Positions 1-28,277 of a stretch of 28,277 nt of DNA are shown in pieces. The notes beneath the pieces are model-generated. The model made no database searches and was not told the origin of the DNA. It saw only the letters and a program-made list of their open reading frames with translations. Location: IMG/VR virus record IMGVR_UViG_2913167280_000009, positions 1-28,277 of that record; one strand, written 5' to 3'. The position numbers and the translations under genes were made by a program. The stretch is from a virus. Lineage: Duplodnaviria > Heunggongvirae > Uroviricota > Caudoviricetes. How positions within the stretch are numbered: the stretch's first letter is position 1; each line of letters begins with the position of its first letter.

Positions 1-993
1 TTAACTCAATAACCAGACCAATATCACGATGATGGCGGTCAGCAATATCCACAGGCTGGGGCGCATGGCCATTTCTTGCATCGTGTTAATGAATGGCGTA
101 AAGGGATTGAGCAACGGTTGAATATCTCGCGGTTCAATCCCATTCACCCGCCGTTGATAAAGCTGGTTGAGGATATCCTCGGCCTGTGCGGAAGTCAGGG
201 CTGAATGCTGAGAAAGGCCATATTTTTTCTCAACATAGCTCGATAATACTGTCAACTCGCTGGCATCCAGTGGCTGTTTTAGCGCCATCTGAAGCGACTC
301 CAGTGTCGGTGTATTTTGCTGACTTAACACCTGGCGTGCCTGCAACCAGGTAACCAGGTGGGTAAACATTTTGGCCGGGATCAACTCTCCATTTTTTACC
401 CCAGAAAGTTCCAGCATAGATTGCCAAATCTGTTTGCTGGGTTCTCCTGTTGCCGCCGCGAGTTTAGTCACCAGTTGCTTAAGCGTATTGTGTTCTGCCG
501 GTAGCAAAGGGCGATCGGTCGCCTGGCGCTGTTGCGGCTGCGGAATAACCATCTTCCCTTCCTGTAACAGCGTCAGGACGGTTTTTAATTGCTCCGGTGA
601 GAGTTGATTCAGCGGCGTCTGACCAAAGTTATGACGAATGTAATCTGTGACCGCCTGACGATTATTCCCCAGTCGTAAGTACTCGCTCAATTGCGCCAAA
701 AGCTGGCGGACAGAATGGCTTTCTTGCGCGGCCAGTAAACGTTGTGCAAGGTTTTGTTCTGCGGCGGGGAAATTGCGTGAAAGTAACGGTGAATCGCCCG
801 GCAGACCGATGTCGTGCTTTATACCAGCCCACAATTCCGCGCTCTGCTGTTGCGTCAGCGAAGTCACTTTGGTTATCAAACTTTCCAGCACTGTACGTTG
901 CAAGCTGGATAAAGGCTGATTGCCTGCGCCAGACGACAGTTTATCCCCCTGACCCGGTGGTTGCCCAGGAGGGGCGGAAATTGGTTGTATCAT
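1..993 (-). CDS. flk: Flk-like C-terminally anchored membrane protein (probable flagellar biosynthesis regulator Flk); likely host flank
   Basis: 330-aa ORF, Gln/Leu-rich, single C-terminal hydrophobic anchor (SLWILLTAIIVILVWLLS); length and architecture fit enterobacterial Flk. Recognition is from memory and unverified. Confidence 0.5.
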   Translation of the reverse strand: MIQPISAPPGQPPGQGDKLSSGAGNQPLSSLQRTVLESLITKVTSLTQQQSAELWAGIKHDIGLPGDSPLLSRNFPAAEQNLAQRLLAAQESHSVRQLLAQLSEYLRLGNNRQAVTDYIRHNFGQTPLNQLSPEQLKTVLTLLQEGKMVIPQPQQRQATDRPLLPAEHNTLKQLVTKLAAATGEPSKQIWQSMLELSGVKNGELIPAKMFTHLVTWLQARQVLSQQNTPTLESLQMALKQPLDASELTVLSSYVEKKYGLSQHSALTSAQAEDILNQLYQRRVNGIEPRDIQPLLNPFTPFINTMQEMAMRPSLWILLTAIIVILVWLLS

Positions 994-1198: not shown

Positions 1199-1225
1199 AG
1201 CCCGCAACATTGCGGGCTTTGTCTT
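1199..1225. terminator. GC-rich hairpin (AGCCCGC-N6-GCGGGCT) followed by a T-rich tract on the + strand, at the 3' end of the methyltransferase gene
   Basis: Inverted repeat read directly; T-rich tail only on + strand, so its role for the - strand MTase gene is uncertain. Confidence 0.35.
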
Positions 1226-2015
1226 ATGGTTCGATCGCCGTTTTGAGCCGTTGTGTTGCTACATCAAAATAATGATCACTGGTTTCTATACCAATAAATT
1301 TGCGTCCTGCTTTCAGTGCTGCAATACCCGTTGTTCCTGACCCCATAAAAGGATCAAGGACTGTTCCGCCACTATTCGCAGTCCTGACCAGTTCTGCCAT
1401 AAGTTCTTCTGGTTTTCCGGTCGGATGCAGTTTCTTTGACGGGGTAACCGGGAACGTCATGCAGCCGTCGAACGGTCCCGAAGGCGATTTACCTAAATGG
1501 CCTTTGCTACCCCAGACGATGTATTCGCACTGATGCCGGAAATACCCGGTATGGGGTGTTCGTGACCCCCTCCCTTTGTTCCACGCAACGATTCCACGCC
1601 ATGTAAAGCCGCTGGCCTGAAACGCATCGGTTAAAGCTGGCAGTTGCCGCCAGTCAGTAAACACCAGGGCATAACCGCCCGGCCTGACTGCGCGGTATGC
1701 CTGTGCCATCCATAATTGTGTCCAGTAAGCCCACGAACGGGCATCCATGTTTTCACCCGCAAATCCATCAAAGCGGTGAAGGTTCTTGTCGTTCAGATAT
1801 TTTGCATGGCTGCCCTGGTTGGTGCGTCCCGCCTTGTGTGTTGCCCCTGAACTGTAAGGCGGATCAGTGATTAAGGCATCAATGCTTTCTGGCTCAATCA
1901 GCGGCAATATTTCCAGTGCATTCCCACAGCAGAGCGTGGCATTGTCAGTCTGGTAAATCTTAGTGTATTCCGGGGTATGGGCTGTTTTGTGCTGGATTGC
2001 GATCCCCACGGTCAT
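1224..2015 (-). CDS. DNA amino-methyltransferase (N6-adenine or N4-cytosine), beta-class motif order
   Basis: 263 aa; DPPY catalytic motif near the N-terminus (ITDPPYSSG) and SAM-binding FxGxG motif near the C-terminus (LDPFMGSGTTGIAA). Confidence 0.85.
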   Translation of the reverse strand: MTVGIAIQHKTAHTPEYTKIYQTDNATLCCGNALEILPLIEPESIDALITDPPYSSGATHKAGRTNQGSHAKYLNDKNLHRFDGFAGENMDARSWAYWTQLWMAQAYRAVRPGGYALVFTDWRQLPALTDAFQASGFTWRGIVAWNKGRGSRTPHTGYFRHQCEYIVWGSKGHLGKSPSGPFDGCMTFPVTPSKKLHPTGKPEELMAELVRTANSGGTVLDPFMGSGTTGIAALKAGRKFIGIETSDHYFDVATQRLKTAIEP

Positions 2016-2166
2016 TGCTCCTCATGTGTGTGGGGTGCTCGATGGCTCTCGTTATCTGGTTAAGGGTTTTGCAACGCGGACATTTTATTTCAATGTGGTG
2101 AAATGAGGCGCGGGCAAGTAATTTATAGCAATTTTTGCATCGTATATTTTGCATCATCTGCGGCAC
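1960..2166 (-). CDS. com: Com-like zinc-finger protein (homologue of phage Mu translational activator Com); true start probably at 2154 (MQNIRCKNC)
   Basis: Translation IRCKNCYKLL...HIEIKCPRCK matches Mu Com (IRCKNCNKLL...HIEIRCPRCK); two CxxC pairs; 3' end overlaps the MTase start by 56 nt. Confidence 0.7.
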   Translation of the reverse strand: MPQMMQNIRCKNCYKLLARASFHHIEIKCPRCKTLNQITRAIEHPTHMRSNDRGDRNPAQNSPYPGIH

Positions 2167-2231: not shown

Positions 2232-2255
2232 GGTGCCCTCATTTGTGAGGGTGCC
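2232..2255. other. Stable stem-loop (GGTGCCCTCA / TGAGGGTGCC, two G-U wobbles, loop TTTG)
   Basis: Inverted repeat read directly; lies in the hok 3' region / com upstream region. Confidence 0.35.
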
Positions 2256-2263
2256 AAAAAGAA

Positions 2264-2289
2264 AACCCGCAGTATTTACGCTGCGGGTT
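2264..2289. terminator. Bidirectional rho-independent terminator (AACCCGCAG-loop-CTGCGGGTT) flanked by A-run and T-run; terminates the hok transcript on the - strand
   Basis: Perfect 9-bp stem, 8-nt loop, T-rich tracts on both strands. Confidence 0.6.
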
Positions 2290-2345
2290 TTCTTGTTTGT
2301 GTCCATGGGATAGGGTGCCACTTCGGCCAGCCTTAGCAACCGATT

Positions 2346-2376: not shown

Positions 2377-2517
2377 TTACTGCTTACACTGTAAGAACGC
2401 CGCAAACTCCGCTCCCCAGAAGCTCATCCGTATTTCACACAGCGAACCGTGCAGCATCCAGATGATAAGGGTTGCCGTCACGCAGAACGTGATGGCCATC
2501 AGCGATTTTTGCGACAT
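2377..2517 (-). CDS. Hok/Gef-family type I toxin (small membrane toxin); not in the supplied ORF track because it is under 60 aa
   Basis: Hand translation of the - strand gives MSQKSLMAITFCVTATLIIWMLHGSLCEIRMSFWGAEFAAFLQCKQ (46 aa): N-terminal TM helix, conserved SLCEIR and E-AAFL-CK motifs of the Hok family; RBS AGGAG 8 nt upstream of ATG. Confidence 0.7.
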   Translation of the reverse strand: MSQKSLMAITFCVTATLIIWMLHGSLCEIRMSFWGAEFAAFLQCKQ

Positions 2518-2709
2518 AGCACTTGCTCCTTTGTTGGAGAGGCGCTAACCTGTCACTTGCGAAGGTTATGTGGTTAGTGCCCCGAGTTGAACATAAAAGT
2601 TTAACCGGGGCCTTTCCACATCTGGCCTTCGGGTATTCCCTCCAGCCATCAGCCGAAAGGCACCCGCGCGTAATCTATCGCTTTTTTGTTACTCCGGCAA
2701 TTCAGCCTG

Positions 2710-2970
2710 TTAATTCTGAGGTAAGGGCAAACTCATCTGGTTGTTTCCCCTGTGTGAAGCTGGTAGCTCATTCCACGGGATGCCCTCTGAAGAGTGAACG
2801 CAGGGGGCGTGTTTCGATGTGAATTTATGGAAAGCCTCCAGTGTTGAGAAGCATACGCCGCATTCCAGGTTGTTACACTGGTAATATTTTTTCCGTACGG
2901 TATCTGAATCATTTTCCGAACGACTGGTGCGGATACGGGCAGATGCGCCACAAAGCGGACAACGGAACAT
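2710..2970 (-). CDS. ogr: Ogr/Delta-family zinc-finger late gene transcription activator
   Basis: N-terminus MFRCPLCGASARIRTSR...YYQCNNLECGVCF matches P2 Ogr (MFHCPLCQHAAHARTSR...YHQCQNVNCSATF), Cys4 finger; immediately downstream of D as in P2. Stop position (86 aa vs 72 in P2) less certain. Confidence 0.8.
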   Translation of the reverse strand: MFRCPLCGASARIRTSRSENDSDTVRKKYYQCNNLECGVCFSTLEAFHKFTSKHAPCVHSSEGIPWNELPASHRGNNQMSLPLPQN

Positions 2971-26103: not shown

Positions 26104-26643
26104 TTAGGTGTTCTTTTTACCTTCTGTCAGTGGGCATAACCATCCACTATTTACATCACTTAGCTGATGCGTTCTTTCCTCGTGCTTCTCCTGCCACAAT
26201 GCTTTTCCGCCAGCCTTTATGATGGCTCTTTCAACATCCCGCTCGTATCGCAAGGGCTGAAATACGTTATTAATGAAATATTCGCTTATGTCCGAAAGCA
26301 ATACTGCAAAATTATTGGTTTGTTGCGCCGTTCGGCTATGCAGCAAAGCGGCATACTTTAATGCGTCCTGTGCTTTCTGGAATTTAAGTGCATGGTCAGT
26401 TGCGATTTTTTCCAGTTCAGCGATGCGCTTTTTTGCTGTTTCCAGTTCATCCAGCAGTGCCAGCATGTCTTCCGGTCCAGCCAGAAGTCTGAAGGTGTTG
26501 ATCGCGTCAATATCCACACCGCAATCTTTAAGTTCCTGTTCGCTTAACAAATCATCATCAACTGGCAATATTAACAGGCGTTCCATTGCCGGAATTGCCC
26601 GTTCTGCTGCCATTTGTAGTGCCTGATAGTCAATCTTGCTCAC
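26104..26643 (-). CDS. Hypothetical protein (acidic, helical); co-transcribed with upstream ORF
   Basis: 179 aa; start overlaps the stop of the preceding ORF (ATGA coupling); no family recognised with confidence. Confidence 0.5.
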   Translation of the reverse strand: MSKIDYQALQMAAERAIPAMERLLILPVDDDLLSEQELKDCGVDIDAINTFRLLAGPEDMLALLDELETAKKRIAELEKIATDHALKFQKAQDALKYAALLHSRTAQQTNNFAVLLSDISEYFINNVFQPLRYERDVERAIIKAGGKALWQEKHEERTHQLSDVNSGWLCPLTEGKKNT

Positions 26644-27224: not shown

Positions 27225-27536
27225 TCATTCAGGAAATAATGCCCGGATATTCCCTGCTATCTGACTGGTTATCTGTGCGGTTGATACTGGCTGTGACGCG
27301 GGGGATTCTGTCCTGGTTTGTGTCACTGATAACGCTTCATCATCAGCCCATGCAGCCAGTCGGTAAGCCTCTGCCGGATTCATCTTCAGAAGTGCCAGCC
27401 CGGCCAGAAAAGCCACGCGCTGGCCGCTTTTGCGGGCTTCTGGTGTAAGGCTGTCCAGCCAGGCGCATGCTTCGCCTTCGTTCTTGACGGCGGCTGGCTT
27501 CAGATAGAAACTTATTCTTCTGGTTAATGTCGCCAT
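27225..27536 (-). CDS. parR: ParR/StbB-like partition adaptor (centromere-binding)
   Basis: 103 aa; RISFYLKPAAV...AWLDSLTPEARKSGQRVAFLAGLAL aligns with R1 ParR (TIAFKLNPDVN...DTLDSIPQGERSRLNRAALTAGLAL); directly downstream of the parM homologue. Confidence 0.75.
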   Translation of the reverse strand: MATLTRRISFYLKPAAVKNEGEACAWLDSLTPEARKSGQRVAFLAGLALLKMNPAEAYRLAAWADDEALSVTQTRTESPASQPVSTAQITSQIAGNIRALFPE

Positions 27537-27542
27537 GGAGGG

Positions 27543-28277
27543 TTACTCCTTATCCATAGCGTACAGACCGTTAACCAGAGCAAACTGTGGCACCCCGTCT
27601 GTGATGAAATTCGCATTGACTCCATAGACTTCACGGACTGCGGGTGCCACAATCTCCGCTCCTCCACCGACAACCAGCACCCGCCCGTAACCCGAAAAGC
27701 CCGCGAGTGCGCGGATCACGCGTTGTTTCAGTGTCTCCTCCTTTTCACGAATAACCGCCATCAGGCTGTTGTAATGCGCGTCATTGTGAATGTGCTGGCG
27801 TAGCCAGGCTTCATCGTGACGGTGCTCAATAATGGTATTGGCGATGTGGTGACTGGTACGCATACCGTTAGTGGCCATCACCGACAGCACGGCATCAGCC
27901 ATCAGGGAAACGCCTACGTGTGGATCGCAAAACACCTGGCTGATGCCTGCCAGTTGCCCCTGAACCTTTGCCACATCCAGCGTGGTTCCGCCCAAATCCA
28001 CAATCAGCAGGGATTCAAACGGACTCATGTCAGCCAGTGCCTTAAAGCCAGCCGGAATGGATTCAGGCATAACCCGCACGTTACGGATAGTGAATGCCTC
28101 ACCGTTCTGGCACTCCACCGGGCGCATGACGTTCGCTTTTTTGCGGTTGATGTTGGCCATGTCCGGCTGTGCGTTTGTGTCGAAATATTCGCTCAGTGGC
28201 AGGGTGACAACCACATCCACTTCCTGTGGTGTGATGCCTGATTTGACCAGTGCGTGGTGAATGGCAATGACATTCAC
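27543..28277 (-). CDS. parM: ParM/StbA actin-like partition ATPase, N-terminally truncated by the window edge
   Basis: Colinear matches to R1 ParM: IAIHHAL, ITPQEVD, RKKAN, VMPESIPAGF, SLLIVDLGGTTLDVA, GVSL, FSGYGRVLVVGGGAE, LVNGLY. Confidence 0.85.
   Translation of the reverse strand: MNVIAIHHALVKSGITPQEVDVVVTLPLSEYFDTNAQPDMANINRKKANVMRPVECQNGEAFTIRNVRVMPESIPAGFKALADMSPFESLLIVDLGGTTLDVAKVQGQLAGISQVFCDPHVGVSLMADAVLSVMATNGMRTSHHIANTIIEHRHDEAWLRQHIHNDAHYNSLMAVIREKEETLKQRVIRALAGFSGYGRVLVVGGGAEIVAPAVREVYGVNANFITDGVPQFALVNGLYAMDKE

Follow-up and report, generated by a model that had tools for sequence, protein, structure and literature searches.

Does the short open reading frame beside the late-activator gene ogr in a P2-like prophage encode a toxin of the Hok family, and does it belong to a complete hok/sok-type module when the mok frame of the textbook architecture is missing? 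The locus lies in a stretch of viral DNA of 28,277 nucleotides (here called the window), in which an initial annotation had pointed to a 46-aa Hok/Gef-family toxin gene. The reading favored here, with a probability of about 0.88, is that positions ~2254–2700 of the window constitute a complete hok/sok-type type I toxin–antitoxin module, a cargo unit that a P88-like (Xuanwuvirus, P2-like) prophage carries with ogr on one side and a com/methylase pair on the other. The features of the proposed module and of its upstream neighbor are collected in Table 1.

Table 1. Features of the proposed hok/sok-type module and its upstream neighbor, in window coordinates and in the order of the hok mRNA
Feature	Position	Strand	Description
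ogr/Delta-like zinc-finger late activator	2710..2970	(-)	PF04606, 53.5 bits; upstream neighbor, outside the module
Promoter-like site, hok mRNA	2672..2700	(-)	-35 TTGCCG (2700-2695), 17-nt spacer, -10 TAGATT (2677-2672); read from sequence
hok mRNA leader	2504..2665	(-)	Rfam RF01794 'sok' match, model positions 1-157 of 157
5' element (tac-like) GGGUGCCUUUCGGCU	2651..2665	(-)	two alternative partners
Local alternative partner of the 5' element, GGAAAGGCCCC	2607..2617	(-)	-23.9 kcal/mol; would correspond to the metastable or 'activated' fold of the R1 paradigm
Leader hairpin (sokT-like)	2579..2611	(-)	complementary to the hairpin of the Sok-like RNA
Predicted Sok-like RNA, ~60 nt	~2558..2617	(+)	placed from the promoter-like site; free 5' tail of ~10 nt, then hairpin
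Antisense promoter-like site	2523..2551	(+)	-35 TTGCTC (2523-2528), 17-nt spacer, -10 TAACCT (2546-2551)
CUCUCC, putative anti-SD	2536..2541	(-)	predicted small hairpin with the SD (MFE and centroid structures); sequence conserved
Shine-Dalgarno (SD) AGGAG	2526..2530	(-)	8 nt 5' of the hok ATG; nearly invariant in homologue alignments
hok-like toxin ORF	2377..2517	(-)	46 codons and stop; N-terminal TM helix; LCE and E..AAF motifs
GC-rich stem-loop	2345..2368	(-)	10-bp stem, 9 nt after the hok stop codon
3' element (fbi-like) GGCCGAAG-U-GGCACCC	2313..2328	(-)	15-bp pairing with the 5' element
Intrinsic terminator of the hok mRNA	2254..2294	(-)	stem CCCGCAG...CUGCGGG, then UUUUCUUUUU; homology between loci ends here

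The toxin gene and its family

The open reading frame runs from 2517 to 2377 on the minus strand, intact from its ATG to a TAA at 2379–2377, and translates as MSQKSLMAITFCVTATLIIWMLHGSLCEIRMSFWGAEFAAFLQCKQ; its extent is exactly that given in the initial annotation, which had also noted the AGGAG ribosome-binding site. Residues 4–24 of the peptide are hydrophobic, with Kyte–Doolittle means of up to 1.85 in 19-residue windows, in agreement with the N-terminal transmembrane helix that had been proposed. The proposed Hok signatures hold as well: SLCEIR and E-FAAFL-C align with the L-C-E and E..A.F columns of Hok R1, HokC and HokD. Overall identity to these three proteins is 27–33%, and the alignment shows residues M1, C12, T14, L26, C27, E28 and E37 unchanged throughout. 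The same seven positions have been found in a recent survey to be more than 80% conserved across 1264 Hok peptides.

Profile searches place the peptide in the Hok/Gef family. The Pfam profile HOK_GEF (PF01848), whose alignment the initial annotation had suggested as a check, matches residues 7–44 at profile positions 5–42 of 42, with a significant score of 27.4 bits (E 2.6e-6) against a curated gathering cut-off of 22 bits. PHROG 251, 'MokW-like host killing', matches with an E value of 2.9e-21. The NCBIfam models score far lower relative to their cut-offs, at 32 bits (E 9e-8) against 89 for the HokA equivalog NF007290 and 20.3 bits (E 4e-4) against 73 for the Hok subfamily NF007279; the peptide is thus to be placed within the Hok/Gef family and not as an orthologue of the K-12 proteins. 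More narrowly, it is a member of 'cluster 72' (Escalera-Maurer et al., bioRxiv 10.1101/2025.08.07.668861) and of PHROG 251, separate from HokA. None of the defense-system protein models of PADLOC-DB 2.0 matches it.

The coding frame is conserved. An uninterrupted open frame of 46–47 codons occupies the hok position in all 39 distinct homologous DNA sequences, and codon differences between the homologues and the window comprise 109 synonymous and 79 non-synonymous changes. PGAP calls the homologues 'Hok/Gef family protein', the type that the initial annotation had assigned, and under this name they are found at NCBI in Escherichia, Shigella, Salmonella and Citrobacter. The exact 46-aa protein is itself on record there, as 'Hok/Gef family protein [Escherichia albertii]' and 'MULTISPECIES [Escherichia]', so that the description of the gene as unannotated is right for the open-reading-frame track then at hand and wrong for public records. 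A chance open frame in intergenic DNA with a spurious resemblance to Hok, which the shortness of the peptide, its level of identity to Hok R1, HokC and HokD and its scores under the NCBIfam cut-offs might suggest, is excluded by the Pfam score above the gathering threshold and the PHROG match, by the independent match of the leader to a hok-leader RNA model, by the conservation of the frame in 39 distinct sequences and by the PGAP annotation of the exact protein. Judged by its sequence, the 46-codon gene is a real one and specifies a Hok-type membrane toxin.

Leader, antisense RNA and pairing of the mRNA ends

The conserved unit is larger than the coding sequence. Homology between loci starts near 2687–2700 and stops near 2256 whatever the flanking DNA, and the ~430-bp unit, with its non-coding elements, is conserved at 82–95%. 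The unit of ~2254–2700 therefore moves as one. At its upstream edge, the promoter-like site for the hok mRNA begins 10 nt past the ogr stop codon, and its -10 hexamer reads TAGATT or TAGAAT also in copies with unrelated upstream flanks. A consensus scan for promoters and terminators over 2150–2800 reported neither this site nor the antisense one, each of which matches 8 of 12 consensus positions; both promoter-like sites therefore rest on conservation and spacing.

Downstream of the promoter-like site, a conserved 5' end, GCGGGUGCC, begins at 2667 and is followed by a leader of 150 nt. On the hok strand, the leader matches the Rfam family RF01794 ('sok') with 43.3 bits and an E value of 3.9e-8, short of the family's gathering score of 59; in the Rfam search of the window, no match reaches the gathering score of any family. 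The RF01794 consensus is written in the sense of the hok mRNA and ends ...AAGGCAAGG...AUG, so the element matched is the hok leader, within which the complement of Sok lies. The 5' GCGGGUGCUUGAGGC of this consensus is common to the hokW and hokC loci, as quoted in two papers.

The 3' region of the mRNA holds two hairpins, for which the initial annotation had given 2346–2367 and 2264–2289; folding returns them with slightly longer stems, at 2345–2368 and 2259–2294. In the first stem, two pairs stay paired after changes on both sides, from GC to AU in five sequences and from AU to CG and AU to GC in one each. The second has a 15-bp stem, with a U run after it on the minus strand, and is the hairpin of the predicted intrinsic terminator. 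The consensus scan called a terminator on the plus strand only; the hairpin reads as a terminator in that direction too. Weak Rfam matches at 2188–2314 (Thr_leader, BSnc120, miRNAs and others) were set aside as look-alikes of this hairpin.

A Sok-like RNA had been expected from the plus strand around 2518–2620, and conservation and folding lend weight to that placement, with the predicted promoter hexamers, start and hairpin falling within the interval (Table 1). The antisense -35 hexamer, TTGCTC, overlaps the hok SD. Among 31 sequences, the hok-strand complements of the two antisense promoter motifs, GGAGCAAG and AGGTTAGCGCC, show little or no variation. The predicted antisense RNA folds at -31.9 kcal/mol (z -6.5), and its hairpin is kept in 16 of 17 sequence variants despite changes in the sequence of the inner stem. 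The RNA would be fully complementary to leader nucleotides ~51–110, with the binding region ending at least 28 nt upstream of the hok SD; it has no clear U run, and its 3' end is uncertain.

Folding of the full-length hok RNA (2666 to 2256, ~410 nt) gives -191.5 kcal/mol, with a z score of -8.3 against shuffled controls. The structure is closed, in the MFE and the centroid alike, by a 15-bp helix that joins 2651–2665 with 2313–2328, and the SD is paired with the CUCUCC upstream of it. Of 31 distinct homologues, 30 can form this end-to-end helix, with energies of -23 to -31 kcal/mol, and the helix is kept in the divergent copies of Salmonella diarizonae and Citrobacter braakii, in which both strands have changed. 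The GGCACCC of the 3' element is invariant save for a single C-to-T change in one sequence, which is compatible with G-U pairing. Across the homologues, 93% of the helix cells are paired in register, as opposed to 31–57% when the 3' side is slid by one to three columns. A covariation count for this helix found one pair changed on both sides and a score no higher than that of shuffled alignments. The homologues are too close to one another for covariation to prove the helix, which is instead supported by its conservation.

A hallmark of the hok mRNA switch is a 5' end with two mutually exclusive partners. Applied to the 31 homologues, RNAalifold did not return the end-to-end helix and instead paired the 5' end locally with GGAAAGGCCCC; by analogy with the hok paradigm, this local pairing can be interpreted as the alternative fold that the paradigm leads one to expect. 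In silico truncation of the mRNA from its 3' end did not unmask the SD, the unpaired probability of which is 0.44 before and after. A refolding model, in which the 5' end moves to its local partner, CUCGGGGCACUAACC is freed to pair with GGUUAGCGCCUC and the SD opens, is unsupported, as the truncated folds are unchanged.

Two observations concern individual copies. In one homologue (L016), the 5' element has changed and the 3' element has not, with a pairing energy of -7.5 kcal/mol, and in several viral contigs the homology stops before the 3' element. From their sequences, these look like recombinant or truncated copies.

Plasmid R1 offers a scheme by which such elements could act together. 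On that analogy, the full-length mRNA would be stable and would be kept inert by its end-to-end pairing and by the SD/anti-SD hairpin (PMC4147584). Slow trimming of the 3' end would remove the 3' partner, upon which the 5' end would take its local one. A short-lived antisense RNA would bind the leader, and the duplex would be cleaved by RNase III. Should antisense synthesis stop, through loss of the prophage, shut-off of host transcription by an infecting phage or induction of the prophage, the remaining mRNA would be translated, and the peptide would insert in the inner membrane, where the membrane potential would collapse.

The mok frame and the control of hok translation

In plasmid R1, translation of hok absolutely requires translation of the overlapping mok frame, and Sok acts on mok (PMC4147584). 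The initial annotation had noticed no mok-like frame at this locus, and frame inspection of the window and of 31 homologues agrees. In the window, a stop closes the hok frame 10 codons upstream, and the interval contains no start codon; this stop, the TAG within GGTTAGCGCC, is invariant in the subfamily. The annotated mokC of hokC is an in-frame extension from 57 nt upstream, a position that the invariant TAG closes here. Of the two alternative frames of the window, one contains only a GTG open reading frame of 7 codons that is not conserved, and the other runs open for 79 codons (2674 to 2435) with no ATG, GTG or TTG. In this last frame, 16 of the 31 homologues have a long ATG open reading frame of 61–93 codons that starts at -130 or -103, and the remaining homologues have stops at -43 to -7; leader lengths among close relatives differ by non-multiples of three. 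These longer frames were rejected as a conserved mok on account of their variable start, the stops in other copies and the frame-shifting indels of the hairpin. PGAP annotates nothing between ogr and hok. Frame inspection thus finds no canonical mok in the window and no conservation of one across the subfamily. This is the sole departure from the textbook architecture and is mildly unusual.

With no conserved mok frame, an antisense block of hok translation would not operate here through the mok-coupled step. It may tentatively be suggested, at odds well short of even, that the cluster-72 modules of P2-like and Stx phages represent a mok-independent variant of hok/sok, in which hok is translated from its own SD and the Sok-like RNA represses by a route other than the block of a leader frame. 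Such repression would proceed, for instance, by RNase III-dependent decay or, as in tisB/IstR-1, by occlusion of a ribosome standby site. In addition, read-through from the late D–ogr operon might tie expression of the toxin to the lytic cycle.

The lack of mok also admits a different account, in which the module would be a relic that goes untranslated: the frame is intact, the ribosome never reaches hok without mok, and the locus has no effect in the cell. This would fit the mok requirement known from R1, the want of any canonical-start open reading frame overlapping the hok start in the window and the in-frame TAG that shuts the position held by mokC in hokC. It would also fit the failure of in silico truncation to open the SD, and the toxicity tests of the cluster are compatible with it, because these used a supplied SD and not the native leader (bioRxiv 10.1101/2025.08.07.668861). 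A silent locus is, however, expected to decay, whereas the frame is open in every distinct copy with synonymous changes in excess, the ORF has its own well-spaced AGGAG, and the ~430-bp unit, non-coding parts included, is intact in functional phages (P88 and Chuche) as well as in over 1000 E. coli genomes. A relic is accordingly quite improbable, and a working hok/sok-type module remains the preferred reading.

Genomic setting, role and known relatives

Over roughly 2255–26400, the window shares ~94% identity with phages Chuche, P88 and P884B11 and, by this similarity, is a P88-like prophage (Xuanwuvirus, Peduoviridae). In Chuche, the order of genes is tail gene D, an ogr-like regulator, a 'MokW-like host killing protein', gpCom, a DNA methyltransferase and the integrase. 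The 521 bases around the open reading frame match 1571 of 5426 complete E. coli genomes, with query coverage of at least 80% in 1013 of them, and among the matches listed every one carries the annotation 'Hok/Gef family protein | ogr/Delta-like zinc finger'; some 20–25% of complete E. coli genomes carry a member of the subfamily. At 82.6% identity and at a different site, the hok unit also occurs in many Stx2a phages. A scan of species-representative genomes returned seven loci only. Those of them titled Planococcaceae, Vagococcus and Xanthomonas consist of enterobacterial sequence at 70–93% identity, two of them on short contigs, and are suspected to result from contamination or mislabeling.

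Possible roles for the module are retention of the prophage, exclusion of other phages or help in lysis. The initial annotation had thought of addiction or abortive infection. An alternative that differs on role and not on identity holds that the module works as a hok/sok-type system, with help in lysis and phage release at induction as its main task. Its precedent is hokW-sokW, the only phage-borne relative with a studied role, which raised the release of phage Sp5 ~2-fold, and whose toxin appeared after mitomycin C in a RecA-dependent manner (PMC8621323). That the module follows immediately on the late genes D and ogr points the same way, as does the presence of the hok unit in Stx2a phages. 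The scan of 2150–2800 found no terminator between the ogr stop codon and the hok promoter, so that late read-through could occur. Conversely, HokW belongs to a different Hok subclass (51 aa, ~28% identical), and the hok/sok system of R1 has been reported to reduce plating of T4, a role of the opposite kind (cited in PMC8621323). Lysis help as the main role is therefore a possibility to keep in mind, though a rather doubtful one. The identification of the locus as a hok/sok-type module is the same under either view of its role.

The gene and its position beside ogr have already been recorded, and so has the toxicity of the cluster. The value of the present description is mainly one of annotation: a toxin gene of fewer than 60 codons and its predicted antisense RNA belong in the feature table of the prophage, and anyone who clones or deletes the ogr–com region should expect a killer gene there. 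The regulatory question, that is, how antisense control and translation are coupled without a conserved mok, concerns the whole catalogued subfamily and not the window alone.

Among known systems, the hok/mok/sok locus of R1 and hokA–E of K-12 are alike in their Hok/Gef peptides with a transmembrane helix and an L-C-E ... E.AAF core, in an mRNA of ~400 nt with a long structured leader and paired 5' and 3' ends, and in a cis-antisense RNA of ~60 nt (predicted here) that targets the leader ~40–100 nt upstream of the toxin start. The 5' GCGGGUGC motif of the window is common to the hokC and hokW loci. The R1 and K-12 peptides differ in length, with 50–52 aa as opposed to 46 aa here, and in sequence, as noted above. 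The locus in the window thus has the end pairing of hok/sok and probably its leader and antisense layout, and departs from it in having no mok and in scoring below the classical Rfam and NCBIfam cut-offs.

A second relative, hokW-sokW of the Stx2 prophage Sp5, is likewise a phage-borne hok/sok-type module and has been shown experimentally to be a toxin–antitoxin system of type I with an inner-membrane toxin (Takada et al., 2021; PMC8621323). It is from this system that PHROG and RefSeq take the name 'MokW-like'. The label notwithstanding, the gene in the window was rejected as hokW, since HokW is a 51-aa HokD-type peptide (MKQQKAM...) of another cluster, ~28% identical by comparison with the HokD type. 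In addition, hokW resides in a lambdoid phage, whereas the hok gene of the window resides in a P2-like one.

The nearest relatives are gp52 of phage P88 (YP_009113095.1), which is of the same family and sits in the same place, with ogr on one side and the com/methylase pair or the end of the prophage on the other, and the peptides of cluster 72, which are 93–98% identical to that of the window. Cluster 72 is highly abundant and has its members in Escherichia, Salmonella and Citrobacter. Of 45 Hok homologues that have been expressed in E. coli, two, 72_1621 and 72_1589, belong to it; the text names three of the 45 as non-toxic, and neither of these two is among them, so that both are toxic by exclusion (bioRxiv 10.1101/2025.08.07.668861). 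The preprint covered the coding sequence only and does not describe the leader, antisense RNA or mok of cluster 72. Its representative 72_1621 is identical to the window peptide at 44 of 46 residues (M7T, T16I), and the copy in the window is a minor allele of cluster 72, the same in all matters of substance.

Divergent and possibly misplaced copies of the hok module

Among the homologous loci collected by sequence search, some copies of the hok module look recombinant or truncated (L016, L012, L034, L083, L087, L088 and L090). In L016 (IMGVR_UViG_2778261222_000004, 1049-1408), the 5' element (tac-like), which in the hok mRNA is predicted to pair end to end with the 3' element (fbi-like), is altered (GCGGACACC) and the 3' GGCACCC is as before; thus, the end-to-end helix is lost, its value in this copy being -7.5 kcal/mol. 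In several viral contigs, homology ends ~20 nt ahead of the 3' element. Loci with 70-93% identity to the enterobacterial module (L004, L005 and L008, on genome contigs) come from assemblies titled Planococcaceae MAG, Vagococcus sp. and Xanthomonas pisi, and these loci are suspected to reflect contamination or mislabelling. Two of these loci lie on short contigs, of 4.2 kb for Planococcaceae and 0.9 kb for Xanthomonas; the Vagococcus contig measures 226 kb.

Leader frame and downstream hairpin

The stop-free stretch through the hok leader (see table) contains no ATG, GTG or TTG start codon in its frame, and the same relative frame is an ATG ORF of 61-93 codons in 16 of the 31 homologues. Leader composition probably gives rise to this frame incidentally; less likely, it encodes a non-canonical leader peptide. 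On the other side of the gene, the small hairpin with the second GGCACCC is partly conserved among homologues that retain the flank past the terminator.

Features near the hok module and at the ends of the window
Feature	Position	Strand	Remarks
330-aa ORF	1-993	-	Sub-threshold GemA match only
N6/N4 DNA methyltransferase	1224-2015	-	PF01555, 115 bits
Mu Com-like zinc-ribbon ORF	1960-2166	-	PF10122, 44 bits
Second GGCACCC in small hairpin CCCUCA-CAAA-UGAGGG	2232-2255	-	Directly beyond hok terminator
79-codon stop-free stretch	2435-2674	-	Spans hok leader, overlaps hok codons 1-27
Ead/Ea22-like ORF	26104-26643		Adjoins partition pair
Plasmid_stab_B	27225-27536	-	One half of plasmid-type partition pair
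ParM/StbA	27543-28277	-	Other half; continues beyond window edge

Neighboring genes and related phages

The Com-like ORF overlaps the start of the methyltransferase gene, whose top PADLOC match is 'Type II methyltransferase' (E 3.6e-63), and no restriction enzyme was found near the two genes. The arrangement resembles that of an orphan methylase under Com control, which probably serves in anti-restriction; in the related phage Chuche, the equivalent genes are annotated 'gpCom control of modification' and 'DNA methyltransferase'. Positions 1-1095 have no homology to Chuche, in which the integrase is situated past the methylase, and seem to hold variable cargo where the prophage ends. This region is partly matched by phage 500465-2, the features under the match including 'Flk' and 'TagO', and its 330-aa ORF scores 26 bits for GemA against a threshold of 27. 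At the opposite end, a plasmid-type partition pair is situated within the prophage; because it is annotated likewise in P88, Chuche, P884B11 and Shae_phiSM, phages of the P88-like type regularly carry it.
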